A stretch of DNA of 64,000 bases from Candidatus Fermentithermobacillaceae bacterium (GTDB lineage Bacteria > Bacillota > Sulfobacillia > Fermentithermobacillales > Fermentithermobacillaceae), in contig DUUV01000121.1 in assembly GCA_012841375.1 (NCBI GenBank), forward strand, positions 30,186 to 94,185. Direction: 5' to 3'. Within the stretch, counting starts at the first letter, position 1, and each line of letters opens with the position of its first letter. The translations under genes were made by a program, and so were the position numbers. The notes under the pieces are model-generated. The model saw only the letters and a program-made list of their open reading frames with translations, was not told the DNA's origin and did not search any database. This document shows, in pieces, positions 198-29,555 of this stretch.

Positions 198-1430
198 ATG
201 AAGGGCGGAGTGCGTATGACTTGGCGAGTTCTCATGTTGGCATGGGAGTATCCGCCTCATCACGTCGGAGGACTGGGGAGACACGTCGGACATCTTAGCA
301 GGACACTTCTCGAGCGAGAGGCCGAAGTCACGGTCCTCACTCGTTCGGTCTCCAGTGAGACCGAGCGGTGGGACGATGACGGTGTCAGGGTGGTATCGGT
401 CGCTCCTTTCCGGCTTAACCCACCCGATTTCATCACCTGGGCGGCCCAGTTCAATGTGGCGCTCATGGGAGTGGCGGCCAAAGAATTCTCCCCGGGGGAT
501 TTCGATGTCATCCACGCCCATGACTGGATCGTTGCCTATGCTGCGAAAGCCATCAAGGAGGCATGGAAGAAGCCTCTCATCGCCACCATCCACGCCACAG
601 AGTTCGGGCGGCAGCGAGGGCTGCACAATCCAATGCAGGCTCACATATCCGAGACCGAGTGGTGGCTCTCCTATGAGGCGTGCCGGGTGATCGTGTGTAG
701 CCGCTACATGGGGGCGGAAGTGGGAGTCGTGTTCGGAGTCCCCGGCGATAAAGTGAGGGTTATACCCAACGGTATCGACTCTTCCTGGTTCATGACGCGG
801 CGGCGGAAGGCCGAGCGCCCGTTGGTCATCTTCGTCGGGCGGCTGGTGATCGAAAAAGGTCCGCTTGTGTTGGTCGACGCCATGGCCGAGGTGGCGAAGA
901 GATTTCCAGACGCGGAGCTGGCATTCGCCGGCAGCGGTCCTTTGGAAGGGGAGCTCAGGTCGCGCATAGCGCGGAGCGGCCTCGAAGGTCGTGCGCACCT
1001 ATTGGGGCGACTCGATGACAGGCGGCTCCGGGACTTGTATTCGAAGGCGTGGGTGGCCGCGTTCCCCAGTTCGTACGAACCCTTCGGCATAGTTGCCCTC
1101 GAGGCGATGGCCACTGGAGTGCCCGTGGTGGTAGGGAACACCGGAGGTCTCAGGGAAATCGTAACTGCCGGAGAGACGGGACTTGCGGTCGAACCCAACA
1201 ACCCTTCGGCCCTGGCAGGCGCCATATCGGCCCTCTTCTCCAATCCGGACCGTGCCGAGGAAATGGCAGGACGGGCCAAGAGAGTTGCCCTCGCCGAGTA
1301 CTCATGGTCGGACATTGCCGGGAAGACCGTCGCCGTGTATGATGAGGTCCTGGGGGTACCGGGCCTCGGAGATGGAGATCTTCAGACTAAAGAAAAGAGG
1401 CACCGTATTACGACCGGGGCGAGAGTGTAG
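198..1430 (+). CDS. Glycosyltransferase family 4 (group 1, GT-B fold)
   Basis: 410-aa ORF; N-terminal WEYPPHHVGGLGRHV motif and C-terminal EAMATGVPVVVGNTGGLREIV sugar-nucleotide binding region typical of GT4 retaining glycosyltransferases. Start may be ATG 198 or ATG 216. Confidence 0.8.
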   Translation: MKGGVRMTWRVLMLAWEYPPHHVGGLGRHVGHLSRTLLEREAEVTVLTRSVSSETERWDDDGVRVVSVAPFRLNPPDFITWAAQFNVALMGVAAKEFSPGDFDVIHAHDWIVAYAAKAIKEAWKKPLIATIHATEFGRQRGLHNPMQAHISETEWWLSYEACRVIVCSRYMGAEVGVVFGVPGDKVRVIPNGIDSSWFMTRRRKAERPLVIFVGRLVIEKGPLVLVDAMAEVAKRFPDAELAFAGSGPLEGELRSRIARSGLEGRAHLLGRLDDRRLRDLYSKAWVAAFPSSYEPFGIVALEAMATGVPVVVGNTGGLREIVTAGETGLAVEPNNPSALAGAISALFSNPDRAEEMAGRAKRVALAEYSWSDIAGKTVAVYDEVLGVPGLGDGDLQTKEKRHRITTGARV

Positions 1431-1448
1431 CGATGCGGGGGAGAAACC

Positions 1449-2264
1449 GTGATTGAAGCCATAAACCTCACCAAGAGGTACGGTTCGCTTACGGCCGTGG
1501 ACAACCTGAGTCTCGTGGTCAAGCCGGGAGAAATCTTTGGGTTTCTGGGGCCAAACGGAGCCGGAAAGACGACCTCTATTAAGATGCTGGTGGGGCTCCT
1601 GAGTCCTACGAGCGGCAGGGCCGTAGTGGACGGCATTGATGTGGCCGAGGACCCGGTAGGGGCCAAGAGGGTTCTCGGATATGTGCCCGATACTCCGGAG
1701 GTCTACGAGAGGCTTACGGCCAGGGAACTCCTTCGATTCGTCGGTGACCTGAGGCGTCTTCCGCCGGTGGAGACCGAAAATCGGATCGAAGAACTGATGG
1801 CCCTCTTCGAACTCACCGACCGACAGGACGAGCTCTTGGGTGGCTATTCTCACGGCATGAGGCAGAAGGTCTGTATCGCCGCTGCCCTTCTCGCCAGGCC
1901 AAAAGTCCTGTTCTTGGACGAGCCCACGGTCGGGCTGGACCCTCGGAGCGCCAGACTGGTGAAAGACGTCCTCCGGACCATCGCGGATGACGGCGGAGCA
2001 GTTTTCGTCTCAACCCACGTGCTCGAGATAGCCGAGAGGATGTGCGACAGGGTAGGCATCATCCAAAACGGCGTTCTCATAGCCCAGGGGACTGTTGCGG
2101 AACTCAGGTCAAAGGCCCTGCCCGGCGTCGAAGGCGCAGACGCTTCGCTGGAAGACCTCTTCCTGAAACTGACCGGCGGCGAAGAGTATAGGGAGCTTAT
2201 CAGCCATCTGTCTTCAGACCGGCCTTCATCCGAAGGACCTTCCGGCGGCGCCCGGGCCGGATAG
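1449..2264 (+). CDS. ABC transporter ATP-binding protein (ABC-2 type)
   Basis: Walker A GPNGAGKTT, Q-loop, signature-like YSHGMRQKV, Walker B LFLDEPTVGLD, H-loop; GTG start; 11 nt upstream of permease gene. Confidence 0.9.
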   Translation: MIEAINLTKRYGSLTAVDNLSLVVKPGEIFGFLGPNGAGKTTSIKMLVGLLSPTSGRAVVDGIDVAEDPVGAKRVLGYVPDTPEVYERLTARELLRFVGDLRRLPPVETENRIEELMALFELTDRQDELLGGYSHGMRQKVCIAAALLARPKVLFLDEPTVGLDPRSARLVKDVLRTIADDGGAVFVSTHVLEIAERMCDRVGIIQNGVLIAQGTVAELRSKALPGVEGADASLEDLFLKLTGGEEYRELISHLSSDRPSSEGPSGGARAG

Positions 2265-2274
2265 GGGGAAGGTC

Positions 2275-3981
2275 ATGGAGTTCATCTGGATCATACTCAG
2301 GCGCGACCTCAAATCTCTCTTTACATTGAGAGGAAAGGGTTCGCTCAGAGAGAAACTGGGGCTCATGGCAGGCGCCGTTGTCTGGTTTGGATTGGGCGCC
2401 GTCCTAAACTACGGCGCGCTTAAGATGTTTCAGTTCCTGGCAGGGTCTCTCAGCGTGGTCCCCGAGCTCAGGAGGGCCGTGGAGATCAATGTGCTCAACG
2501 GGTCTTCATTGTTTGTCCTTGTCATGGTTCTCCTTATGGGTATCCAGACGACCTACAAGACGGTATACGAGTCGGCCGACGTAGGCTTCTTGCTCTCTCA
2601 GCCCGTACCGGTATGGACGGTGTTCGGAGCCAAGTTCGTGGTATCGTTCGCCACTACGCTCGTCCTTTCGATCTTGTACGGGTTGCCCGTTTGGATAGCC
2701 TTTGGTTCTGTCCGCGGTCTCGGATCCGGTTTCTATTTCCTGGCAGCGGCGGGATTCGTCACGCTTCTCCTGGCTGCCCATGCGGTACTGAATCTTCTTC
2801 TGATGGCGGCTATGAAGCACCTCCCGGGACGCAAGATGAAGCAGATGTTCATCGCCTTTTCGGCCGTCTTCGGTGTACTCATTGTCCTCATGAGCCAATT
2901 ACTGAGCTCCAGAATGAGTCGCGCAGGCGATCCCGTAGCCATGATCGAAGAACTGGGCAAAGGGCAGCTCTCCAGGATGTGGTACTTGCCCAGTACATGG
3001 ATGACCAACGGCATATTGGGGAGCGTCGCCGAGTTCGGCATCGACGGCACCAAGGGGTGGGTAGCGCTTCTGCTCCTGGCCGCCGGCGCTACTTATGCGG
3101 CTTTGACCCTTTCCACCAGATGGTACCTGAGCGGTTGGTCCGGGCGCGCAGAGGAACTGGTACCTGCCAAGAGGAAGCGACGGCGGGCTGCCCGCGTCAC
3201 GGGTAACCGGTTGCAGGGCGTGTACTGGTCTGTCCTCCGTAAAGACCTGAAGACCCTCTGGCGTGACCCGGTGGTATGGTACACGGTGGTTGTCGGTGTC
3301 ATCGGCCTGGCCTTCTTCGCCTACAACATGATGGGGGCAGTCTCTCAGGGGAGCGAGGGAACTCCGGGAGCGATGGACGGGGCCGGCGCGTTCTTACCTT
3401 CATCCATCATGATAGCCATGCCGGCCTTGATGGGCGCAGTCACCTCTTCGCAGACCGGAGGCGTTTCGCTCTCCCGAGAGGGAAAATCATTCTGGATCTT
3501 GAGGGCAGGGCCGGTGAACGCCCGGTCGCTTGTGTTGGCCAAATTCACCTACGCTATCTTGCCGCCACTTGCCTTCGTGTCCGCGTTCAGCGTGTTCCTG
3601 GAATTCACGGGCCTTCCTCACCTCTCCTTGTGGTTGGCCCTTCCCATTGGCTTCATATCCTCTGCGATCTTGGCATCCCTTCAGATACTGCTTGACGTGT
3701 ACTATCCTGACTTTGAACTGAAAATCGAGCTGGGGGCCGGAGTCGGCGGCAGAGGGACGGGCAAAGTGCTGATTACCATGTTCTCATCTATGGCCATGGT
3801 CTTCTTGATAGCCCTTGTCCTCCTGTCACCCGTGCTCCTTGAGTCCAGACTCGGGGAGGGAGCCGGTCCGGCCGTAACTTACGTCTCATACCTTGTGCTC
3901 ATCTTGTTGGCCTTCGGCATGATCTGCGCCCTCCTGGGACCGGGCACGAGGAGGCTCTCCAGGATGCTTGCTGATATGTGA
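2275..3981 (+). CDS. ABC transporter permease, large polytopic membrane protein
   Basis: 568-aa ORF made of many hydrophobic helices, immediately downstream of the ABC ATPase (operon partner); no specific family recognised. Confidence 0.55.
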   Translation: MEFIWIILRRDLKSLFTLRGKGSLREKLGLMAGAVVWFGLGAVLNYGALKMFQFLAGSLSVVPELRRAVEINVLNGSSLFVLVMVLLMGIQTTYKTVYESADVGFLLSQPVPVWTVFGAKFVVSFATTLVLSILYGLPVWIAFGSVRGLGSGFYFLAAAGFVTLLLAAHAVLNLLLMAAMKHLPGRKMKQMFIAFSAVFGVLIVLMSQLLSSRMSRAGDPVAMIEELGKGQLSRMWYLPSTWMTNGILGSVAEFGIDGTKGWVALLLLAAGATYAALTLSTRWYLSGWSGRAEELVPAKRKRRRAARVTGNRLQGVYWSVLRKDLKTLWRDPVVWYTVVVGVIGLAFFAYNMMGAVSQGSEGTPGAMDGAGAFLPSSIMIAMPALMGAVTSSQTGGVSLSREGKSFWILRAGPVNARSLVLAKFTYAILPPLAFVSAFSVFLEFTGLPHLSLWLALPIGFISSAILASLQILLDVYYPDFELKIELGAGVGGRGTGKVLITMFSSMAMVFLIALVLLSPVLLESRLGEGAGPAVTYVSYLVLILLAFGMICALLGPGTRRLSRMLADM

Positions 3982-8705: not shown

Positions 8706-9505
8706 TGGGGTTCACCTCGGTTGTCCGGCCTCGTGGGCTCGCCCTTCTGGGACCCTTGTGGGCCGTCCCCGGAGTCCATAGGCTCGGGTCCGTAAGGCTG
8801 GGGCGGTTCGGCATCGGGGGAGGGGCCGGACTCCTTCCCGTCAAGATCGGCCAGTTCTCTTAGTTTTCTCACTGCCTGACTTAGACCCCCGACGGCGTCT
8901 ATGAGTCCGGCTTTCACGGCTTCTTCGCCCACAAGTACCGTGCCGATATCGCGGGCGAGCTCACCGGTACGGAACATGAGGTCGCGAAACTTCTCTTCCG
9001 AACACTTTGAGTTGGCTACAACGAATCTGATGACGCGATCCTGCATTTTCTCCAGATACTCATAGGTCTGGGGCACCCCGAGGACGGTGCCTGCGAGCCT
9101 GATGGGATGTATGGTCATGGTCGCCGAATCGGTGATGAACGAATACCTCGACGCCACCGCCACCGGGACGCCGATGCTGTGTCCGCCCCCCAAGACAAGC
9201 GATACCGTCGGCTTCGACAAGCTCCTGATGAGCTCGGCGATGGCGAGCCCGGCCTCAACATCTCCGCCCACAGTATTCAAGAGGATGAGAAGCGCAGACA
9301 CGTCCGGGTTCTCTTCGACGGCTACCAGCTGAGGGAGGACGTGTTCGTACTTGGTGGTCTTGTTCTGGGACGGAAGCACTATATGGCCTTCGATCTGGCC
9401 GATAATGTTAAGGCAGAAGATGCTGCTCTTCTGCTCCGGCAGGGTCTGGACACCCAGTTCTTTGAGGTTCTGTGTCCGCTCCTGACTCGTTTCTCCTTGC
9501 GGCAC
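8699..9505 (-). CDS. ClpP-family serine protease paralog (TepA/YmfB-like)
   Basis: ClpP-like core [14 protein letters not shown]...[11 protein letters not shown]...MTIHPIRL (Ser/His positions conserved) plus a Pro/Gly/Glu-rich about 60-aa C-terminal tail. Confidence 0.75.
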
Positions 9506-9538
9506 TCGATCACATCCTGTTCACCAAGTAGGTTGCCC

Positions 9539-11173
9539 TCAAACGAGAGTCCCCTCTCCCGCAAGGGCAAGCTCCGGTTCCTCCTGAGGAGAGCGTGTAA
9601 AGGACCGGAAGTCCAGGAAGGGAAATATGTTGTCCTTCTCTTCCAGTTCGTGAAGATAAGTCTCATCGATTTGCCCCGAGTTCAGCTGTCCCATAAGGGC
9701 CTGAAAACGTCCAATGTGAAGGACCAGCCTCTTTCGAGCGTAGTCGGGGACGGTGCCAGACGTGATGATGAAGGGCCAATCGGATGACTGCGCAAGCAGA
9801 AGCTCCCTTAGGGCCTGGTTGAGCACCCGGGCGGATATCCCGCGGGCTCCTGCATGTTTCACGCTCGCTTCTGCCATCGCCTCCTGGCAGGCATGGAGAT
9901 GCCGATATATCCAGTCGTTTTGGTGCCCCAACCACACCTCGCTGTATCCCTTGTAGCCCCAGCTTGAGGCTGCAGGCGCGACCACCTGCGCCGGGGGATG
10001 CTTTCCCAGGTAGAGAGAGGGGGTTACCGACCTCACGCCCGCCGCCGGATCCGCCGTGAGACGCAGCACTTCCTCTATCCACAAAGGACCCTCGTACCAC
10101 CAATGGCCGAAAAGCTCGGCGTCATAGGGAGCGGTCATGACAGGAGGTTTCCCTAGGACCGACCCCCAGTACTCAGCCTCCTTATTTCTCCAGAACACGA
10201 AGTTCGCGGCGTGGATCTTGGCTCTGGCGGCGGCCGCGTCCGGGTCGTAGGGCTCCTTGTGCTCGCTCCGCCTGTCTGTGACTCTGTAGTACTTGAGGCC
10301 CGTCGGTGTCCTGACTCCGCCCGGAATCGCCTTGCCCAGGTATTCGACAGGCAGATCGTAGGCGATGTCACGGTGAAATTCCCGGTATGCCCCGTCGCCA
10401 GGATATCCCTCGTCGGCACTCCAGACCTGCTTGCCGCATTCTACGTCGCGCCCGAACGCGGCAAGCCCCAGAGGGGTCAGGACAGGCGCGTGAAAGCCAT
10501 AGTGCGGCCTGGGGTTGGCACACAGGACTCCGTGAGTCTCCAATATGAAGTACTGAACGCCGGAACCGGCCAAGTGGGGTTCGATTTCGGGGGAATAGGC
10601 GCACTCGGGCAGCCAGAACCCCTTGGGAGTGAAGCCGAACCGCCGCTCGAACGCCCTAATCCCCGTCCTTATTTGAGTCACGATTGATTCGTCCTGCATG
10701 AGGAGAGGAAGGTACGCGTGGGTGGCCGACGAAGTCATGAGTTCCACGCTGCCTGATTCGTAGAGGCGCATGAACGCGGCAGGAAGGTCCTCACCGAGTT
10801 CTCGGGTGTACAGTTCATAGGCGCGCTCAAAACGCTTCTTGTACATCTCGGCCGCTCTGGCTTCGGGCGATCCCCTTAGTCGTCTTACCTCCTTGCACGA
10901 AAGGTCGTGCAATATGTGGAGGTGTCTCTTGTAACGGCTCTTCATGAGGTCGTCGTCCAGCATCTCAAGGAGAGTGGGAGATAGAGAGACGGTCAACGCG
11001 AACTTGACGTTTTCGCCGGCAAGGCGGCGTAGACATTCCAAGAGCGGCAGGTAACACTCGGTCATGGCTTGAAACAGCCAGCGTTCCTCGAGGGAATCCT
11101 CATATTCCACATGCCTCACGAATGGCAGGTGCGCGTGGAGGACAAGGATCAAATATCCTGACGGGAGGGCCAA
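9539..11173 (-). CDS. Glycoside hydrolase family 57 protein (1,4-alpha-glucan branching enzyme type)
   Basis: N-terminal YLILVLHAHLPFVRH...ERWLFQAMTECYLPLLECL GH57 signature; probable TTG start at 11173 with GGAGGC RBS, 1 nt after the DUF4912 stop. Confidence 0.85.
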   Translation of the reverse strand: MALPSGYLILVLHAHLPFVRHVEYEDSLEERWLFQAMTECYLPLLECLRRLAGENVKFALTVSLSPTLLEMLDDDLMKSRYKRHLHILHDLSCKEVRRLRGSPEARAAEMYKKRFERAYELYTRELGEDLPAAFMRLYESGSVELMTSSATHAYLPLLMQDESIVTQIRTGIRAFERRFGFTPKGFWLPECAYSPEIEPHLAGSGVQYFILETHGVLCANPRPHYGFHAPVLTPLGLAAFGRDVECGKQVWSADEGYPGDGAYREFHRDIAYDLPVEYLGKAIPGGVRTPTGLKYYRVTDRRSEHKEPYDPDAAAARAKIHAANFVFWRNKEAEYWGSVLGKPPVMTAPYDAELFGHWWYEGPLWIEEVLRLTADPAAGVRSVTPSLYLGKHPPAQVVAPAASSWGYKGYSEVWLGHQNDWIYRHLHACQEAMAEASVKHAGARGISARVLNQALRELLLAQSSDWPFIITSGTVPDYARKRLVLHIGRFQALMGQLNSGQIDETYLHELEEKDNIFPFLDFRSFTRSPQEEPELALAGEGTLV

Positions 11174-11174
11174 G

Positions 11175-12110
11175 TCATTGCCTCCACGCCATCGGTGAAG
11201 AAACGTAGTACTCTTGTGTCCAGCGTCCGTAAAGCCTCGCCCAGTCCAGGTCCGACCACTCAAGCGCTATTTCCATGGAATAGTCCCTGGGTGGCATGGT
11301 CACGGGATTTGACCGGAGCATCGGCACGAACCCTCCCGGATAGAGGCGCCCCAACTCGGCGATCAATGTGTGACGGGGTCTGTTTACGTGGACATACCAG
11401 TCCTCGGCGTTTTCTCCTACGACCACGTCCAGGTGGGCATGGGGGATACCGGGCGTTACGTCGTAGAGCCTTAGGGCCGGTCTGGACAAACCCCACTCGG
11501 ATATGTGTCTCTCCATGGTCCGCCTGTAGTGCTCGTGAGTGATCTCCCAGTAGGCGTAGACCCACTGGGGGTCACGGGCCATGAGGACCAACCTGTCCGT
11601 GCCGTACCGTTGGGGGAGAAAATACTGCTCATCCCTGAAAGCTTTCGGGTCCTGAGGCCTCTTGTCCCTGTCATCTCCGCTGGACGGATGCCGCTCATCG
11701 ACGAAGTCTCTGGGCCAGGCATAGGCCCCCGGTTGAAACTCGATGGTCTCGGCGGCCTCCCAAGCCAGTTCCACTTCTTTTGAGAGATTGTCTTTTCGCA
11801 AGGAACGGTCCTTGAGCGCGCCCAGGGCTCTGGATCCTCCAACCCTGGGACGTTCCACCCCGGACAAACGGTCCCTATATAGGGCCTTGTCGGGGTCAAT
11901 CTCTTCGGGGGGCACGCCGATCTCTGACGAGGTTTCCATATGGCCCTGTCGGCGCCCCTCCGCCGGCATGCCGGTCTCACGGCGCCGGCGCGCGAACAAC
12001 ACCAGTAAAAGCCCTGCCGCTATTGCTATTATGAGCCCGAGAAACCAGTCCACGAATAGGATTCCTCCCGAAGAGCCAAAATTCCAAAGACACTCGCCCA
12101 CGGGGCGCAT
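11175..12110 (-). CDS. DUF4912-domain protein with N-terminal membrane anchor
   Basis: WVYAYWEITHEHY...WYVHV motifs of DUF4912; this family is recurrently found next to GH57 genes; N-terminal TM helix. Confidence 0.7.
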   Translation of the reverse strand: MRPVGECLWNFGSSGGILFVDWFLGLIIAIAAGLLLVLFARRRRETGMPAEGRRQGHMETSSEIGVPPEEIDPDKALYRDRLSGVERPRVGGSRALGALKDRSLRKDNLSKEVELAWEAAETIEFQPGAYAWPRDFVDERHPSSGDDRDKRPQDPKAFRDEQYFLPQRYGTDRLVLMARDPQWVYAYWEITHEHYRRTMERHISEWGLSRPALRLYDVTPGIPHAHLDVVVGENAEDWYVHVNRPRHTLIAELGRLYPGGFVPMLRSNPVTMPPRDYSMEIALEWSDLDWARLYGRWTQEYYVSSPMAWRQ

Positions 12111-12936: not shown

Positions 12937-13527
12937 ATGTCAAGAGGAATACTTTTCGTCATAACTGCTCCATCCGGATGCGGCAAGGGGACGCTCAGGC
13001 GTAACCTCTTGGCGGCGGATGTGAGCCTCACCTTTTGTCCCTCCGTTACCACTCGCCCTCCTAGGCCGGGCGAGGCTAACGGAGTGGATTATTTCTTTCT
13101 ATCCAGGGAAGAATTTCTATCCATGAGGGACAGGCAGGAGCTTGTAGAGTGGGCTTCTGTCTACGGGAGATTCTACGGTACACCCAGGAAGCCGGTTGAA
13201 GACGCCCTTCGGAGCGGTACCGACGTTATCCTCGAAAAGGATGTACAGGGAGCCCGTACCTTGCGAGCCGTCTACCCGGAGGGAATCTTTGTGTTTGTCT
13301 TGCCCCCTTCCATGGACGAGCTAAGGCGGAGGATACTGGGGAGAGGCACCGAGACGGACTCGGAGCGGCAAGTCAGGCTGAATAGCGCTGAGATGGAAAT
13401 GTCTGATCTCAGTGGGTATGATTATGTTATCATCAATTCTGATATTGACCGGGCAACAGAGAGGCTGTCCGCTATCGTGGCGGGAGAGCGGGCCCGTTCC
13501 AAGAGGAGGACGGCTAATGATGACTGA
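12937..13527 (+). CDS. gmk: Guanylate kinase
   Basis: P-loop APSGCGKGTL, TTRPPRPGE..GVDYFF, ASVYGRFYGT motifs. Confidence 0.95.
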   Translation: MSRGILFVITAPSGCGKGTLRRNLLAADVSLTFCPSVTTRPPRPGEANGVDYFFLSREEFLSMRDRQELVEWASVYGRFYGTPRKPVEDALRSGTDVILEKDVQGARTLRAVYPEGIFVFVLPPSMDELRRRILGRGTETDSERQVRLNSAEMEMSDLSGYDYVIINSDIDRATERLSAIVAGERARSKRRTANDD

Positions 13528-13780
13528 AGCGGGTTCTGACCGCTCAGCGTTGAGCTCAAAGTACGCTCTGGTGATCGCTGTGGCAAAGAGAGCCAGAGAG
13601 ATAGTGGATGGAAGAGAGGAACCGTTGGGTTCGGGCCACAAACCGGTGACCATCGCGCTTGATGAGATTAACCGGGGAAAAGTGATAGTGACCCTCAAGA
13701 AACAAGACCCGGCCCACCTCGAAGAGGACGAAGAGACGCCGGAGGAACAAGTCCCCGGTGAGTCAGAGCCATTCATATGA
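13517..13780 (+). CDS. rpoZ: DNA-directed RNA polymerase subunit omega
   Basis: KYALVIAVAKRAREI motif; ATG 13517 with AGGAGGA RBS, overlapping gmk end by 11 nt; ORF-track N-terminal extension rejected. Confidence 0.85.
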   Translation: MMTEAGSDRSALSSKYALVIAVAKRAREIVDGREEPLGSGHKPVTIALDEINRGKVIVTLKKQDPAHLEEDEETPEEQVPGESEPFI

Positions 13781-15794
13781 GCCTCGGGGGACACCCTCTG
13801 TGTCCCGTGATCCCGTGGACGCCGTTTACCTAGACATTATCGTGGACGTGCCGGCCGTAGGCGACCGGCGGTTTACGTATTCCTGTCCATCTGAGATTTC
13901 CCTCCCGAGGGGAGCCAAGGTGAGGGTACCCTTCGGCAGGGCAAGAGCCGATGGCTTCGTCCTTGGCGAATGCGCCGAGAAACCGCCTTTCAGCATAAAA
14001 CCGGTTGAAGATATCTACGATCTATCTTTCTTGCCCCCGCAGGAGCTCCTGGGTTTGACGGAAGCGCTGGCACGACACTATTGCGCCTCAACCGCCTCTC
14101 TTTGGTCCAACTTGTACCCGCCGGTAGTGCCGCGGAAGAGCGTCGCCAGGGTGCTCAAGGAGGGCGGCCTTCCGCCTCATCCAGCCATTCCGGACCGTGA
14201 GCCGGCTCAGGAAGTAGAGAAGACCGACCTCTCAAAGGAAATGGAGACGGTTCCCGTTCTCTATGTCTGGGGCTCCCGGCGGTTCAGGTGGAATAAGTAC
14301 CTCGACCTCACAGACAGCGCGCTCAGACGTGGGCAAAGTGTCCTCATCTTGTGCCCTGAGACAAAGGTGTTAGAAGGTATCCTGGCCCTCCTGAGCGCAA
14401 GGTTCCCGGGTGAGGTATGCCCGGTCAACTCCGAGATGACAGGAGTCGTCCGGAGGACTTCGTGGCTCGCTCTTTCACGAGGAGAGGTGAAGATAGCGGC
14501 AGGTACAAGGTCCGCTGTTTTCGCGCCCCTCCGCGACCTGGGATTGGTGATCCTGGACGAGGAGCCTGGATCGGCATACAAGTCTCTGGACTGGCCGTTT
14601 ATTGACGCCAGGACCGCGGCCGTGGCCCGCGGAACCAGAGGGGCCAAGGTGGTGTTCGGAAGCGCTTATCCGAGCGTAGAGGCAGTAGAGAACATTGAGC
14701 GGCGCCGGTGGTCGTGCCTACGGGAGGGTCCGGCCGAACCGCCGGAGAACGGCGAGGGCCTCTTGGAGCCGGGACCGAGGGTAACGGTCGTTGACCTCAA
14801 GGAGACACGCCCCCGCAGAGAGATCATCTCAGCACCTCTCCAGGGGAAACTGGCGGCCGCGTTCTCCTCCGGACACCGAGCCGTCCTGTTTCTAAACCGG
14901 CGCGGCGATTCGTCTTACGTCTCTTGCAGGGACTGTGGCAGCGCGATATCGTGCCCCCGGTGCGGAGTGCCCATGTCTTATCACAGAAGAGAGGGCAAGA
15001 CGATCTGCCACACTTGCGGTTTCCGGGAAGAAGCCCCGGCGGTCTGTCCCGCTTGCGGGGGCCACAATTGGCGGTTCTCCGGTCTTGGTATTGAGAAGGC
15101 CGAGGCTGAGTTCCAGAGAAAATTCCCCGAAGTGCCGGTTTTCACGCTTGATCAGGACGTTGCCCGCAAGACTACCCCTAGTGAGATCCTGGGCGCTTTC
15201 GGCCGGGTTTCTCCCGGGTGTCTGATTGCCACCCAGCTGGTGTTGGGACAAAGCCTCTTGCCAAAGGTCGGCATGGTAGGCGTTTTGTCTGCCGATACGG
15301 CTCTCAGCGTGCCCGACTTCCGGGCGTCTGAAAGGGCTTACCGCCTGCTTGCAGGGCTCAAGGACTGTGTTGACCCCGAACTGGGCTCTCGCGGCGTCTA
15401 TGTTGTTCAGACCCAGAATCCGGACCACCACGCCATTCGGGGAGTTGCCGGCGGCGGTTCTTTTTACGAGGACGAGTTGCGAATGAGACGAATGCTGGGA
15501 TATCCTCCGTTTAAGAGGTTCTTCAGGGTGAAGTTCGAAGGCAGGAACCTGGAGAAGGTTTCAGAAGCCGCCTCCGCGTTTGTCTCAATGCTGCCCCCGG
15601 AGGGCGATATCAGAGTGCTTGGACCGGCTCCGGCTCCGAAGCCGAAGGTCCGGGGGGTCTACCGGTGGCACGTAGCGCTGAAGGGCGACGACCACGGGAC
15701 TATGGCGGCTGAGTGCCGCCGGGTCCTGGAGGGTATGTCCAAGTTCAGGGCGGTAAAGATCCTGGTGGACGTAGACCCCGTAGATACTGAGTGA
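13758..15794 (+). CDS. priA: Primosomal protein N' (PriA) with degenerate Walker A/B motifs
   Basis: N-terminal 3'-DNA-binding domain, GTRSAVFAPLRDLGLVILDEE helicase core, four CxxC zinc-ribbon pairs (CRDCG/CPRCG/CHTCG/CPACG), C-terminal domain; Walker A reads VWGSRRFRWNKY (no GKT) and Walker B DEEP instead of DEEH. Confidence 0.9.
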   Translation: MSQSHSYEPRGTPSVSRDPVDAVYLDIIVDVPAVGDRRFTYSCPSEISLPRGAKVRVPFGRARADGFVLGECAEKPPFSIKPVEDIYDLSFLPPQELLGLTEALARHYCASTASLWSNLYPPVVPRKSVARVLKEGGLPPHPAIPDREPAQEVEKTDLSKEMETVPVLYVWGSRRFRWNKYLDLTDSALRRGQSVLILCPETKVLEGILALLSARFPGEVCPVNSEMTGVVRRTSWLALSRGEVKIAAGTRSAVFAPLRDLGLVILDEEPGSAYKSLDWPFIDARTAAVARGTRGAKVVFGSAYPSVEAVENIERRRWSCLREGPAEPPENGEGLLEPGPRVTVVDLKETRPRREIISAPLQGKLAAAFSSGHRAVLFLNRRGDSSYVSCRDCGSAISCPRCGVPMSYHRREGKTICHTCGFREEAPAVCPACGGHNWRFSGLGIEKAEAEFQRKFPEVPVFTLDQDVARKTTPSEILGAFGRVSPGCLIATQLVLGQSLLPKVGMVGVLSADTALSVPDFRASERAYRLLAGLKDCVDPELGSRGVYVVQTQNPDHHAIRGVAGGGSFYEDELRMRRMLGYPPFKRFFRVKFEGRNLEKVSEAASAFVSMLPPEGDIRVLGPAPAPKPKVRGVYRWHVALKGDDHGTMAAECRRVLEGMSKFRAVKILVDVDPVDTE

Positions 15795-15897
15795 GAGACT
15801 GAGGAATGTCTCGTCGTGCGCTCATAGGATTTACAGGAACGACCGGCGTCTTCCGAAGTCACAGAAGATATGGATATCGTGAGTGAAGGTGGTTTCG

Positions 15898-17346
15898 TTG
15901 GCGATCCTTGAGATCAGGAAGTTTGGAGACCCGGTATTGCGGAAAGCCTCCAGGCCGGTGCCGCGGGTCAACAACGCGGTACGCAAGATACTAGATGACA
16001 TGCTGGAGACTATGCGGAATGCCTCGGGGGCCGGCCTGGCCGCGCCTCAAGTGGGAATCTCAAAGAGGATAGTGATAGTAGACATCGGGGAAGGACCCCT
16101 GTTCCTCGTAAATCCGGAGATCGTCTCGGTCTCAGAAGAGACCCAGATTGGTGTCGAGGGATGCCTCAGTTTTCCGGGTTACATAGGTGAGGTTGAGAGG
16201 CCTCTCAAGATCACTGTGAAAGCGCTGGACCGGGACGGGCATGACGTATGGGTGGATGCCGAGGGCTACCTAGCCAGGGCCTGCTGCCATGAAATTGATC
16301 ACCTGGACGGCGTTTTGTACACCGACCGGGCAACGACCATCTCAGAGGTCAAGAAGGAACCTGACGAACCCGAAGGGGAAGAGGCAAAGGAGAGAGAGAT
16401 CACGGCTGTTTTCATGGGGAGCCCGGAGTTTGCCGTACCTTCTCTGGATGAACTGGTGACCTCAGGCGTCAAGGTGGAGCTCGTCGTGACCCAGCCGGAC
16501 CGTCCCTTTGGGAGGAAGCAGGAGATACGCCCCACCCCCGTCAAAGCCAGAGCCATGGAGCTGGGCATTCCGGTTCTCACTTGCGAGCGGGTGGGAGATC
16601 CCGGCGTTGTACGCAAGATCCGCGAAATCGCCCCGGACTTTGTCATTGTCGCCGCCTTCGGACAGAAGCTCCCTGAGGAGGTCTTGTCGGCCCCGAAGAT
16701 CGCGTGCTTGAATGTGCACCCGTCGCTACTCCCCAAGTACAGAGGCGGTAACCCGGTCCAAAGAGCGATCATGAACGGCGACACGGCGACAGGCGTCTCC
16801 ATCATGTACATGAGCGAGAAAGTGGATGCGGGCGACATCGTCCTCAGGCGGGAGGTCCCCATCGGCCCCAATGAGACCTTTGGGACGCTGGAAAGGAGGT
16901 TGGCCTCGTTGGGAGCTCACGTCCTTGTCGAGGCCGTGCGCCTCTTGGCGTCCGGTTCGGTCGCCCGGATACCACAAGATGAACCGGAAGCCACTATCGC
17001 CCGGCACCTCTCCAAAGGCGAAGAGGTGATCGACTGGCGAAGGCCCGCTGTGGAGGTTCACAACCTGGTTAGAGGCCTTTCACCCAAGCCGGGAGCAGTT
17101 ACTTATTTGGACGGACAACGTATCAAGATATGGCGGACTCGCCTTCCTCTTGAACTCCATGAAGGATCCCACACTGCGGGTAGTATAATTGGGGTAGAAG
17201 GCGAATCGGCGCTCGTCCAGTGCGGCGATGTCCCCATCGCCGTTTTGGAGGTTCAGCCTGAAGGCCGGAGCAGCATGAGCGCTCAAGCGTTTCTCATGGG
17301 GCTCAGGTCGAGAAATCGTGTATTCGGTGGGAGGGTAGAGACATGA
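15898..17346 (+). CDS. def-fmt: Fused peptide deformylase / methionyl-tRNA formyltransferase (Def-Fmt single ORF)
   Basis: Def motifs GAGLAAPQVG, EGCLSFPG, HEIDHLDG (aa 1-~160), acidic linker KKEPDEPEGEEAKERE, then Fmt from ITAVFMGSPEFAVPSL with HPSLLPKYRGGNP motif; no stop between domains; start TTG 15898 (MAILEI) or GTG 15883. Confidence 0.8.
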   Translation: MAILEIRKFGDPVLRKASRPVPRVNNAVRKILDDMLETMRNASGAGLAAPQVGISKRIVIVDIGEGPLFLVNPEIVSVSEETQIGVEGCLSFPGYIGEVERPLKITVKALDRDGHDVWVDAEGYLARACCHEIDHLDGVLYTDRATTISEVKKEPDEPEGEEAKEREITAVFMGSPEFAVPSLDELVTSGVKVELVVTQPDRPFGRKQEIRPTPVKARAMELGIPVLTCERVGDPGVVRKIREIAPDFVIVAAFGQKLPEEVLSAPKIACLNVHPSLLPKYRGGNPVQRAIMNGDTATGVSIMYMSEKVDAGDIVLRREVPIGPNETFGTLERRLASLGAHVLVEAVRLLASGSVARIPQDEPEATIARHLSKGEEVIDWRRPAVEVHNLVRGLSPKPGAVTYLDGQRIKIWRTRLPLELHEGSHTAGSIIGVEGESALVQCGDVPIAVLEVQPEGRSSMSAQAFLMGLRSRNRVFGGRVET

Positions 17347-25747: not shown

Positions 25748-27495
25748 CTATGGCCCATAGTATCCTGGATGGCGACGTTTTTAGGCGTCTGGTCTTGAGC
25801 GCGAGATCGTATCTGGGCGCTCGAAAGAAAGAAGTGGATTCCCTCAATGTTTTCCCGGTTCCCGACGGAGACACGGGGACCAACTTGTACCTCACGCTCT
25901 CATCGGCAGCCGACACGCTGTCAGAAAAGAGCGGGCTTACTCTGTCGGAGGCTTCCGAGATGGCGAGCCACGGAGCCCTCATGGGGGCCCGGGGCAACTC
26001 GGGAGTGATTCTCTCCCAAATACTGCGAGGTATCGCCAGGCACTTTCAGGGACGGGACAGCGTTACGGCACCTGAGTTGTGCGGGGCGTTGGACGAAGCG
26101 GTTACAACAGCGTATAAGGCCGTGATGAAACCGGTTGAAGGCACCATCCTCACGGTGCTTCGCGGGCTCCGCGACGGGGCGACCAAAGCGGCCTCCTCTC
26201 ACGACCTTTCGTCGATCTTGGGCTCCGGCCTCAAGGAAGCCAAGGCGGTGTTGGAGCACACCCCCGAAATGCTTCCCGTCCTCAAACAGGCGGGCGTAGT
26301 TGACGCCGGAGGCAAAGGTCTCGTTTTCATAGTGGAAGGATTTCTCGAGGGATTGTCCTACGAAGAAGTAAGGGAGATAGCGGTCGGCGAGAGTCCGGTG
26401 ACCTTTCCCGCGCCATCGAAAGGATCATTCCGTGTCGAAGAGCTTGAGACCGCCGATATCAGATACCCTTACGACACCCAGCTCCTGGTGACCCTTCATG
26501 ATTCGTCTCCGGATAGGCTGAGGGAGGACCTGACTCCTCTTGGAGACTCGCTCCTGGTCGTCGGGTCGGGAGGGCTCGCCAGAGTGCATATCCACACCGA
26601 CCGTCCGGGTGACGTGTTGACCGCCTGTCTCACCCACGGCACCCTTTCGGACGTTACCATCGACAACATGATCGAGCAGTCCCGGGACATGGCCAAATCG
26701 TCCTCTCCGGCAACGGCCGCAGGCGGCCCGGGAGGCCTGGCCTCACCTGAACAAACAGGCGGAGCCCCAGGGGCCACCGGCAGCGCTTCAGTGCTGCCGC
26801 CTTCACTTTCTGCCGCCGTCAACGAAAGAGAGGCCAGGGAAACCGGGATAGTGTCGGTCGCGACCGGCCAGGGACTCAAGGACATCATGAAGAGTCTTGG
26901 CTGTGACTTGGTCATCGACGGTGGCGTTACCATGAACCCGTCAACCGCCGAACTCGCGGCGGCCGTGAAGAGCGTGGCTGCCAAGAAGATCATCTTCCTA
27001 CCCAATAACGGCAACATTTTCTTGGCTGCCAAGCAAGCCAAGAAGCTTGTGGGACGGAATATGTACATAATCCCGTCCAAGACCATTCCGCAAGGCATAT
27101 CGGCGCTTCTATCCCTGAATCTCAACGAGGACATGGGGCACAACCTCAAGAGGGCCTCAAAAGCCCTGAAGCGAGTCAAGACGGGAGAAGTGACCTACGC
27201 TGCCCGGACCGGCAAGTTTGGACGGCATGTGATGAACCAAGGGGATATCCTGGGCCTCATCGACGGCAAAGTCGAACTGGTGGGAGATGACCCGGTGGTT
27301 GCGCTCAAGGAGATAGTGCGCCGGATGGTAAAACAAGGCGACGAGATCGTGACCGTATACTGGGGCCAGGATGTGGATGAAGAGACGGCCGCCAAGGCAA
27401 GCGAAGACCTGGAGGCTATGCTCGACGGTTCGGTTGAGCTGGAGTTCCACAGCGGAGGGCAGGCACTTTACTACTTCATCATCTCGGTGGAATGA
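25744..27495 (+). CDS. fakA: DAK2-domain fusion protein YloV (fatty acid kinase FakA family)
   Basis: N-terminal DAK2 domain (FPVPDGDTGTNL), central and C-terminal DegV-like/FakA domains; 583 aa. Confidence 0.85.
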   Translation: MTMAHSILDGDVFRRLVLSARSYLGARKKEVDSLNVFPVPDGDTGTNLYLTLSSAADTLSEKSGLTLSEASEMASHGALMGARGNSGVILSQILRGIARHFQGRDSVTAPELCGALDEAVTTAYKAVMKPVEGTILTVLRGLRDGATKAASSHDLSSILGSGLKEAKAVLEHTPEMLPVLKQAGVVDAGGKGLVFIVEGFLEGLSYEEVREIAVGESPVTFPAPSKGSFRVEELETADIRYPYDTQLLVTLHDSSPDRLREDLTPLGDSLLVVGSGGLARVHIHTDRPGDVLTACLTHGTLSDVTIDNMIEQSRDMAKSSSPATAAGGPGGLASPEQTGGAPGATGSASVLPPSLSAAVNEREARETGIVSVATGQGLKDIMKSLGCDLVIDGGVTMNPSTAELAAAVKSVAAKKIIFLPNNGNIFLAAKQAKKLVGRNMYIIPSKTIPQGISALLSLNLNEDMGHNLKRASKALKRVKTGEVTYAARTGKFGRHVMNQGDILGLIDGKVELVGDDPVVALKEIVRRMVKQGDEIVTVYWGQDVDEETAAKASEDLEAMLDGSVELEFHSGGQALYYFIISVE

Positions 27496-29555
27496 CTGGG
27501 AGCATGGGGCGGTCACTGGATGAACCCGTCAGGTACCTGAAGGGCGTCGGCCCCAAGAAGGCCTTGCTTCTTCGCGAGCTCGGAGTAGAAACCGTGCGGG
27601 ACCTCTTGGACCACTTTCCATTCCGCATCGACGACTTCTCCCGTGTGGTGCCGATGGGTGCTGTTACGGCAGGCGTTCCGGTGACGGTGCAGGGCAAGGT
27701 CATCTCGGCCCAGTTCATAGGGAGTAGCCGCGGTAGGGCCTTTCGAGTGGGCATAGCCGACGGTACGGGCATCCTCTATCTCGTCTGGTACAACATGCCC
27801 TATATCCACAAGAGGTTCGCCCCCGGCATGCCGGTATCGGCTTCGGGGAAAGTGGAGTGGAGGAGAGGAGCCTTCGAGATGGCCCACCCCCTCTGGCGTC
27901 AGAGTAGTTCCGGTGACGCCAAGGGACCTGTCATTCCGGTGTATCACGCGACTCAAGGACTCACGTCCCAAAGCATTCACTCGATAATCAAAGATGCCCT
28001 AAAAGTATATTCCCCCTACCTAGAGCCCTTGGTGCCTCAGACGATCTTGGACAAGCATGGCTGTTTGAGCGAACGAGAGGCCTACCAAGGCATTCACGAC
28101 CCAAAGTCCTGCGAAGTATGGGAAAAATCGCGCCGGACCTTGGCCTTTCGCGAGACACTCAGCCTTCAGATAGGGCTCCTCTCGATGAAAGCCGAAGCGC
28201 TGAAGTCTCCGGGCCCGCGGCCGTTCGAAACGTTTCGCGAGGCCGATGCCTTCTTGGCCGGTCTCCCGTTCAGGCTGACATCCGCCCAGAGGAGAGCCAT
28301 TGAGGATATCGGGCGTGACCTTAGGTCGGGGCACACCATGAACAGGCTGCTTCAGGGTGACGTGGGGAGCGGCAAAACCGTAGTGGCCATGTGGGGACTT
28401 ATCTCGGCTGTGGAAAACGGCTGGCAGGGAGCCCTCATGGCTCCGACGGAGATCCTTGCCACGCAGCACCTCAACACTTTCAGGCAACTTGTGGGAGATA
28501 GGGTGCGGACGGGCTTTCTCTCGGGCGCCGTTCGGAAGAGCGACAGGGAATCGACTCTCACGAAGCTCTCCTCCGGCGAAATCGACGTTCTGATCGGGAC
28601 CCATGCCCTCTTGAGCCCGGAGATAAGGTGGCGCAAGCTGGGGTTCGTCGTAACTGACGAGCAGCACCGTTTTGGCGTTAAGCAAAGGTTGACTCTGTCC
28701 CATAGCGACGAAGTCCTCCCACATATGCTTGTGATGAGCGCGACGCCCATTCCACGCTCACTGGCGCTCACGCTGTACGGCGACCTTGATGTGTCTGTCA
28801 TGGATTCCATGCCCGAAGGAAGAGTGGCAGTCACCACCAGGTGCGTCACCCGGAGACAGCGCCAGAACGCCTACCGGGTTGTAAGGGATGAAGTGGCAAG
28901 AGGCAGGCAGGCCTTCATCGTGTGCCCGCTCATCACGGAAGGGAAAACTGACAGACGAGCGGCTTCGATGGTGAAGGAAGAACTTGAGAAAGGTTACCTG
29001 AAGGGCCTCTCTATCGGGCTCCTTCACGGGAGTCTCAGCAAAAATGAGATTAACGAAACGATGACAAAATTCGCCAATGGTGAGATCCAAGTCCTTGTGG
29101 CCACCACCGTTGTGGAAGTAGGGATCGACGTACCGAACGCCACGGCGATGGTGATTGAAGATGCCGACTCCTTTGGATTGGCTACGCTGCACCAGCTGAG
29201 AGGCCGGGTAGGACGCGGGCGGCATCCTTCCGTATGCTTCCTTGTAGCCTCAAGCGAGTCAAGTCTTTCCCGACTCAGGGGATTGGAGAAGACAACTGAC
29301 GGGTTCGAAGTGGCGGAAATGGACCTCAGGGAAAGAGGACCCGGACAGTTCTTTGGCACAGCACAGCACGGAATGCCCGACATCAAGTTGGCCGAACTGG
29401 GGCTCTCGCTTGACGTAGTGGCCAGGGCAAGGCAAGAGGCCAAAGAGATGCTGGAAGCGGTGGAGCGAGGCTCAGCGTCTCCCGAGGTCTTTACTGTGGT
29501 GGAGCGCGTAAGAGAGAAGTTTGGAGACCTCCTCAAGCACGGCCGGTCACGCTGA
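27492..29555 (+). CDS. recG: ATP-dependent DNA helicase RecG
   Basis: Wedge domain, Walker A GDVGSGKT, DEQHRFG, TATPIPRS, arginine-finger QLRGRVGRG motifs; 687 aa. Confidence 0.95.
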   Translation: MTGSMGRSLDEPVRYLKGVGPKKALLLRELGVETVRDLLDHFPFRIDDFSRVVPMGAVTAGVPVTVQGKVISAQFIGSSRGRAFRVGIADGTGILYLVWYNMPYIHKRFAPGMPVSASGKVEWRRGAFEMAHPLWRQSSSGDAKGPVIPVYHATQGLTSQSIHSIIKDALKVYSPYLEPLVPQTILDKHGCLSEREAYQGIHDPKSCEVWEKSRRTLAFRETLSLQIGLLSMKAEALKSPGPRPFETFREADAFLAGLPFRLTSAQRRAIEDIGRDLRSGHTMNRLLQGDVGSGKTVVAMWGLISAVENGWQGALMAPTEILATQHLNTFRQLVGDRVRTGFLSGAVRKSDRESTLTKLSSGEIDVLIGTHALLSPEIRWRKLGFVVTDEQHRFGVKQRLTLSHSDEVLPHMLVMSATPIPRSLALTLYGDLDVSVMDSMPEGRVAVTTRCVTRRQRQNAYRVVRDEVARGRQAFIVCPLITEGKTDRRAASMVKEELEKGYLKGLSIGLLHGSLSKNEINETMTKFANGEIQVLVATTVVEVGIDVPNATAMVIEDADSFGLATLHQLRGRVGRGRHPSVCFLVASSESSLSRLRGLEKTTDGFEVAEMDLRERGPGQFFGTAQHGMPDIKLAELGLSLDVVARARQEAKEMLEAVERGSASPEVFTVVERVREKFGDLLKHGRSR

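Follow-up and report, generated by a model that had tools for sequence, protein, structure and literature searches.

According to a review of the field, PriA is a helicase of nearly universal conservation, its motor motifs being kept "except in Deinococcus" (PMC5778457). The PriA of Deinococcus radiodurans is a "pseudohelicase" in which the Walker A lysine is changed to arginine and motifs I and II are off consensus; neither ATPase activity nor unwinding could be measured for it, and it binds single-stranded DNA (ssDNA), forks and DnaB (Lopper, Boone and Morrow 2015; PMC4504706). In Escherichia coli, the K230R substitution (priA300) abolishes PriA's ATPase, helicase and translocase functions and leaves primosome assembly and near-wild-type growth intact (PMC5778457). 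Here we describe a priA gene in a 64-kb stretch of DNA (the window) from a Candidatus Fermentithermobacillaceae bacterium. It is an open reading frame (ORF) of 678 amino acids at 13758..15794 on the forward strand, on which all window features given below lie, and it begins with GTG. Its product is PriA by descent and architecture, but it is not a PriA helicase.

The window protein resembles its D. radiodurans counterpart in being a PriA ortholog with Arg at the position of the Walker lysine and with motifs I and II off consensus, and the fork and ssDNA binding and the loading role without ATPase that were shown there are expected here. However, it comes from Bacillota (Ca. Fermentithermobacillia / DTU015) and not from Deinococcus-Thermus, its motifs III, V and VI are also degenerate and its P-loop is shorter, whereas the Deinococcus paper describes changes in motifs I and II only. 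A further difference is that it has no winged-helix domain. When the full-text literature was searched for PriA in combination with pseudohelicase, Deinococcus was the only case that emerged. The PriA pseudohelicase is therefore a kind of protein that is already known, only from Deinococcus-Thermus, and what differs here is the phylum, the more complete erosion and the conservation throughout a deep lineage. Its origin was probably independent of the Deinococcus-Thermus pseudohelicases, because the gene has the synteny of Bacillota and its nearest sequence relatives are canonical PriAs. An earlier examination of this DNA (hereafter the sequence-only reading) had invoked the Deinococcus protein and had considered such a PriA unexpected in Firmicutes. 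The precedent is real (PMC4504706), and the surprise is justified for Bacillota, as the review allows an exception only in Deinococcus (PMC5778457).

The assignment to PriA was the starting claim of the sequence-only reading and it holds, as the 3'-DNA-binding domain (3'BD), the four CxxC pairs and the C-terminal domain (CTD) were all found and the protein scores 351.7 bits against the NCBIfam equivalog TIGR00595, for which the cutoff is 230.35. Scores against the narrower PRK05580 and PRK14873 sub-models were all below their own cutoffs. The solved Klebsiella pneumoniae and E. coli PriA chains in the PDB match it from residue 179 to the end with E about 1e-68. An AlphaFold2 model, made with a 119-sequence alignment, has a mean predicted local distance difference test score (pLDDT) of 91.6 and a predicted template modelling score (pTM) of 0.90. 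When this model was compared with the PDB by Foldseek, the best match was E. coli PriA 8fak_H (E 2.3e-48, template modelling score 0.77/0.81), on which it is superposable; the nine best matches are all PriA, and the next family is Mfd with E about 1e-11. Public databases label the protein "replication restart helicase PriA". Two start codons come into question for the gene. With GTG 13758 it shares 23 nt with the end of rpoZ (stop 13778-13780), and GGAGGA lies 11 nt upstream of this codon; the JGI and NCBI gene calls start 14 codons further on, at GTG 13800, with GGGGGA about 8 nt upstream and a product of 664 amino acids. Homologue N-termini vary, and the choice of start is immaterial to the analysis because PriA conservation begins at about residue 26.

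In order to place the helicase motifs, the register was taken from the HMMER alignment to the full-length E. coli PriA 8fak_H, in which window residue + 53 = E. coli residue. This alignment starts just past the P-loop (N179 = E. coli E232); MAFFT alignments, among them one of the window protein with 118 homologues (119 PriAs), concur with the register and give a P-loop one residue shorter than GxTGSGKT. At motif I (14265..14300, residues 170-181) GxTGSGKTEVY is replaced by VWGSRRFRWNKY; GxTGSGKT is aligned to WG-SRRFRW, so that the P-loop glycines have become the bulky residues Arg and Phe, and R177-W178 (14286..14291) stand at the Walker A K230-T231 of E. coli. This Arg-Trp pair is invariant in the clade of 20 proteins described below, and in its extended form the Arg at the Lys position stays invariant and is followed by Trp or Phe. 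The degenerate Walker A announced by the sequence-only reading was borne out by both alignments, to 8fak_H and to the 118 homologues; an alignment to E. coli PriA was part of the check it had proposed, and R177 is thereby equated with K230 and P270 with H323. Its second claim, a degenerate Walker B, was overstated: in the DEEP of motif II (14556..14567, residues 267-270), D267-E268-E269-P270 correspond to D320-E321-E322-H323, and the His of DEEH is lost to Pro (A, S, E or W at this position elsewhere in the clade), but Asp-Glu-Glu, and with it the acidic D267-E268, is retained. All the strings it had quoted, VWGSRRFRWNKY, AAGTRSAVFAPL, DEEP and the four CxxC pairs, were located in the protein.

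The erosion extends beyond what had been noticed before. Motif III reads GSAYPS for GSATPS (14658..14675), with the Thr gone; the remnant of motif V is ATQLVLGQ for GTQMxAKG (15228..15251), with Thr-Gln kept and Lys-Gly gone; the motif VI site (15351..15386) has AGLKDCVDPELG for QVxGRAGRxxxxG, in which neither arginine finger is present; and the winged-helix domain is missing too. The losses of the motif III Thr, of the motif V Lys-Gly and of GRAGR are more decisive evidence than the changes in motifs I and II. By these alignments, all five motifs that bind nucleoside triphosphate (NTP), namely I, II, III, V and VI, are degenerate in the window PriA.

Motifs Ia, Ib and IV make nucleic-acid contacts in superfamily 2 (SF2) helicases. 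The motif Ia of the window protein, LCPETKVL (14349..14372), keeps the Pro-Glu of the PE(I) core, with P200 invariant and E201 at least 90% conserved in the clade and both at least 90% conserved over the 119 PriAs. In the motif Ib region, AAGTRSAVFAPL (14496..14531, residues 247-258), G249, R251 and A253 are invariant in the 119 PriAs, and F255 is invariant in the clade and at least 90% conserved over the 119. S252, the motif IV residues F378, L379, N380, R381, R382 and G383, the Ser-Tyr-Lys loop that follows motif II, and T492 and Q493 are likewise invariant or at least 90% conserved over these 119 proteins.

The same separation between lost and kept parts is found in the domain architecture. 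The 3'BD (13833..14117, residues 26-120) matches Pfam PF17764 with 58.3 bits, and within the clade its R37, F39, T40, Y41, G52, K54, V55, V57 and F59 are invariant. It is followed by a short and poorly conserved linker (14118..14252, residues 121-165), with low pLDDT at residues 141-160, which replaces the winged-helix domain of long PriAs; the latter is not present, leaving an alignment gap of about 150 columns relative to PriAs of 800 amino acids. As the winged-helix domain is also absent from the canonical short PriAs P0021, P0023 and L005, it is not strictly PriA-defining. RecA-like lobe 1 (14253..14732, residues 166-325) keeps its fold, its catalytic residues are gone, and it gives a Pfam DEAD match of only E=0.045. 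The first part of RecA-like lobe 2 (14775..14912, residues 340-385) holds the conserved motif IV FLNRRG, and the second (15078..15437, residues 441-560) has no Pfam Helicase_C match. Between them lies the cysteine-rich region, a two-zinc ribbon (14913..15077; PF18319, 36.4 bits), whose four CxxC pairs (C390/393, C399/402, C417/420 and C430/433) have all eight Cys invariant in the 119 PriAs. The protein ends with the PriA CTD (15507..15785, residues about 584-676; PF18074, 64.7 bits). The Pfam search of the window PriA returned zero Helicase_C matches and a DEAD match with E=0.045, whereas the control P0021, a canonical short PriA of 656 amino acids, scored 60 bits for DEAD, 45 for ResIII and 43 for Helicase_C in the same search.

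These features are shared by a whole clade. A search of 5.8 billion proteins yielded 20 clusters, with 40-100% identity to the window protein and all without PF00270 and PF00271, and each of these 20 clade proteins lacks all five motifs. Among the other 100 matches listed (at most 38% identity), 98 have helicase domains. When a strict regular expression was applied to 98 non-clade matches, 74 were found to keep the five motifs, 22 to miss one or two, and two, P0089 and P0102, to lack all five. This clade-wide pattern of motif loss is far beyond chance. A profile of the clade was also run against 1.84 billion cluster representatives, of which nine stood on top with 1037-572 bits, above a plateau of PriA representatives, mostly canonical, at 544 bits or less. 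Seven of these nine are new (35-44% identity), and all share the degeneration, which brings the total to about 27 proteins. A profile search with the clade alignment was made on GTDB genome contigs as well, in which the clade members counted are a lower bound. The clade is a single monophyletic group on a long stem in a neighbour-joining tree, and its members are named "Candidatus Fermentithermobacillaceae bacterium" or are unclassified Firmicutes/Bacillota metagenome-assembled genomes (MAGs). These names point to DTU015, or Ca. Fermentithermobacillia, a class-level lineage of thermophilic anaerobic fermenters represented by MAGs only plus one closed genome (PMC10215811).

The gene lies directly downstream of gmk and rpoZ (12937..13780) and directly upstream of a fused def-fmt gene (15883..17346), which serve as synteny anchors, within a block that contains genes for an H2TH protein, remA, gmk, rpoZ, priA, def/fmt, a Zn-peptidase, rsmB and rlmN, followed by genes for a PP2C phosphatase and a PASTA kinase, rsgA, rpe, further genes, an Asp23-family gene, a DAK2/FakA-like gene and recG. 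Clade PriAs occur in three GTDB genomes, with identities to the window protein of 63% (L001, Ca. Fermentithermobacillaceae), about 43% (L002) and 39% (L003), and the gene order remA-gmk-rpoZ-priA-def/fmt-...-rsmB-rlmN-PP2C-PASTA kinase is common to the window and these three loci. In all three comparisons priA has diverged more than any other gene of the block, its neighbours having 47-94% identity. Because this ancestral Bacillota position is shared by the window and L001-L003, the priA described here is the ortholog rather than an additional copy. In L002 a coaBC gene (Flavoprotein and DFP domains) lies between rpoZ and priA (8777-9985), an arrangement found also in B. subtilis, and L003 has a gap between rpoZ and priA of the same size as the coaBC interval of L002. 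The gene is missing from this place in the window and in L001, and it was therefore lost or relocated within the Fermentithermobacillaceae branch.

The comparison with canonical Bacillota PriAs (B. subtilis, Staphylococcus aureus, Geobacillus stearothermophilus; TIGR00595) summarizes what has changed. The neighbourhood (gmk-rpoZ-[coaBC]-priA-def-fmt-rsmB), the 3'BD, the cysteine-rich region and the CTD are shared, and presumably the DnaD-DnaB-DnaI route too. However, the canonical proteins have about 800 amino acids, a winged-helix domain and the seven SF2 motifs and are active 3'->5' helicases, whereas the window PriA has 678 amino acids and neither the winged-helix domain nor the NTP-binding motifs.

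Since the NTP motifs are lost while the DNA-binding parts and the fold are conserved across a deep clade, we propose that this orthologous priA has turned into a pseudohelicase that most likely works as a passive platform for fork recognition and helicase loading, a reading to which we give a probability of about three in four. The sequence-only reading had suggested an ATPase-dead scaffold on the basis of motifs I and II, and this idea is favoured by the loss of motif I, of the motif II His and of motifs III, V and VI together with the retention of the DNA-binding parts and the fold. Such a protein would not productively bind or hydrolyse ATP, and would therefore neither translocate 3'->5' nor unwind the nascent lagging strand. 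It would recognize abandoned forks and D-loops by their structure, through the 3'BD, the surface of the helicase core, the cysteine-rich region and the CTD, and fork-bound PriA would then nucleate the loading of the replicative helicase through DnaD-DnaB-DnaI. Binding to forks, ssDNA and the loader is predicted from the conservation of the 3'BD, of motifs Ia, Ib and IV, of the cysteine-rich region and of the CTD. Other motors, such as the intact RecG encoded 12 kb downstream, would clear the lagging strand when required, and RecG is a candidate motor for the remodelling of forks beyond what this PriA could do. The conserved Arg-Trp beside the conserved Asp-Glu-Glu suggests that the former ATP pocket is now a structural element; as a speculation, Trp178 may fill the nucleotide site and Arg177 may pair with the acidic residues.

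The separation between assembly and motor on which this proposal is based is that of the E. coli K230R (priA300) and K230A/D mutants, and K230R has, like the window protein, Arg at the Walker Lys. Those mutants are engineered single substitutions in an intact helicase, whereas the loss seen here is natural, ancient, multi-motif and fixed in the lineage. E. coli restart uses PriB and DnaT, and to our knowledge Bacillota have neither of them. In Bacillota, helicase loading runs through DnaD, DnaB and DnaI (PMC5778457, PMC10804225).

Several points weigh against the scaffold proposal. We infer the loss of ATPase and helicase activity from the loss of the motifs, and the Walker B Asp-Glu-Glu is conserved and an Arg occupies the Lys position, so residual or altered nucleotide binding is formally conceivable; moreover, the existence of another, weaker nucleotide site has been suggested for the E. 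coli protein (PMC5778457). The search for priA was confined to the 64-kb window and +-10 kb of the three related genomes, and a second, canonical priA might lie elsewhere in the genome. Finally, the partners DnaD, DnaB and DnaI are taken from the Bacillota norm, and their presence in this lineage is presumed.

This second canonical copy would be the basis of a different explanation, in which the window gene is a neofunctionalised PriA with another DNA-binding role and restart is carried out by a separate PriA. The divergence of priA would fit a relaxed or shifted function, as no other gene of the block has diverged so far (63/42/39% identity to L001/L002/L003, compared to 47-94% for its neighbours), and the genome beyond the 64-kb window could hold another priA. 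However, all four loci have the gene where priA ancestrally lies in Bacillota, as expected of an ortholog, every PriA-specific domain is conserved, and no canonical PriA labelled Fermentithermobacillaceae appears among the 120 best matches listed. The window contains no second priA, RecG being the only helicase-type ORF with GxGKT there. We therefore consider a neofunctionalised copy unlikely. Slightly more improbable still is that the protein has kept NTPase or helicase activity through a non-canonical active site, for instance with Arg177 in place of the Walker Lys together with the motif II Asp-Glu. D267, E268 and E269 are each at least 90% conserved in the 119 PriAs and R177 is invariant in the clade, which indicates a continuing constraint on the region of the former active site, but such a site would have to function with a P-loop shortened by one residue and with Arg and Phe for its glycines, and without the arginine fingers of motif VI, the Thr of motif III and the Lys-Gly of motif V. 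Moreover, no Pfam helicase domain is detectable in this protein, whereas the control P0021 scores.

By far the least probable explanation is an artefact of sequencing or assembly, or a pseudogene in decay. A canonical GxGKT, which the sequence-only reading would have counted against its claim, was found in no forward frame across the P-loop. A P-loop hidden by a frameshift was considered, as the +1 frame reads SGAPGGSGGIS (14259-14300) and its GAPGGSGGI is superficially like GxxGSGKT, but this resemblance is absent in L001-L003 while the in-frame sequence is conserved, and the stretch is judged to be a chance product of GC-rich sequence rather than the relic of a double frameshift. Canonical Walker A motifs are found in six other ORFs of the window. 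Among them is RecG (27492..29555), which belongs to this conserved block and lies 12 kb further downstream; it is fully canonical, with its wedge domain, DEAD and Helicase_C domains and GDVGSGKT, and is an internal control of sequence quality. Full-length members of the 90%-identity cluster to which the window protein belongs come from at least 13 contigs (JGI, NCBI HHX29135.1, MGI6666359.1, Logan), in addition to a 326-amino-acid ENA fragment, which means that several sources arrived at this sequence independently. All clade members have an intact ORF, and about 27 proteins, with identities as low as 35%, carry the same degenerate motifs.

Decay is also contradicted by the conservation of the domains and by the confidently folded model. 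Per-domain identity was used in place of the ratio of non-synonymous to synonymous substitutions (dN/dS), as even L001, the nearest DNA relative, has only 63% protein identity and synonymous sites are saturated. Within the clade, identity is 49-54% in the lobes, 53% in the 3'BD, 48% in the CTD and 61% in the cysteine-rich region, while among canonical PriAs the lobes have the highest values (57-58%), the 3'BD and the CTD having 36% and 28%, respectively. The lobes of the clade proteins are thus conserved as well as the other domains; they are still under purifying selection, but the additional constraint due to catalysis has been lost. Taken together, the artefact or pseudogene explanation is already effectively refuted.

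The downstream neighbour of priA deserves a comment, because def and fmt are adjacent yet separate genes in most bacteria. Here they are fused in a protein of 487 amino acids with Pep_deformylase (9-152), Formyl_trans_N (176-352) and Formyl_trans_C (376-474) domains, and the fusion is recovered as a single tblastn segment in L001 (12067-13527), L002 (11991-13376) and L003 (11954-13348).

PriAs without the NTP motifs were also observed outside this clade. A second monophyletic group that lacks the five motifs includes two Nitrospirota proteins, L004 (Nitrospiria MAG, 10001-11977) and L033 (Nitrospirales MAG, 1010-3031), and the metagenome proteins P0089, which is a 35-member cluster, and P0102. 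Its replacement residues (LPAATYE..., DQED, ASAHPS, TQLVVTRS and no GRAGR) differ from those of the Bacillota clade, and in L004, the member searched with Pfam, the 3'BD, the cysteine-rich region and the CTD are intact. This looks like another, unreported lineage of PriA pseudohelicases. In addition, L043, from a Ca. Stahlbacteria MAG (10001-11908), has a P-loop deletion (GMN---RRGIYL), and a deleted or degenerate Walker A and/or a missing motif VI is found in the scattered PriAs P0159 (Walker A G---EKRW), P0243 (GSGKM), P0170, P0203, P0253, P0239 and P0182. The occurrence of these proteins suggests that uncultured lineages have lost the PriA motor recurrently.

We lean slightly towards a broader view, in which motor loss is recurrent and not a Deinococcus oddity, the sole PriA of DTU015 has been motor-dead since the origin of the clade, with its pocket rebuilt on Arg-Trp/Phe, and separate groups have arisen elsewhere. 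If this is true, the universal selectable function of PriA would be structure-specific fork recognition and recruitment of the helicase loader, and its helicase activity would be an accessory that lineages can discard. It would also bear on the question of how important the PriA motor is for restart in Gram-positive bacteria, as in B. subtilis the need for this activity was still unclear according to a 2023 review (PMC10804225). A Bacillota class that keeps the PriA of the ancestral locus under purifying selection without its ATP motifs would be a natural experiment, implying that the scaffold function suffices in a background of the DnaD/DnaB/DnaI type. The annotation "replication restart helicase PriA" probably over-states the activity of these proteins, and, in view of the motif-less groups found in Nitrospirota and elsewhere, a systematic survey seems worthwhile. 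Finally, structural and biochemical studies of how the helicase loader is recruited may find in this lineage a PriA that is thermostable and naturally motor-dead.

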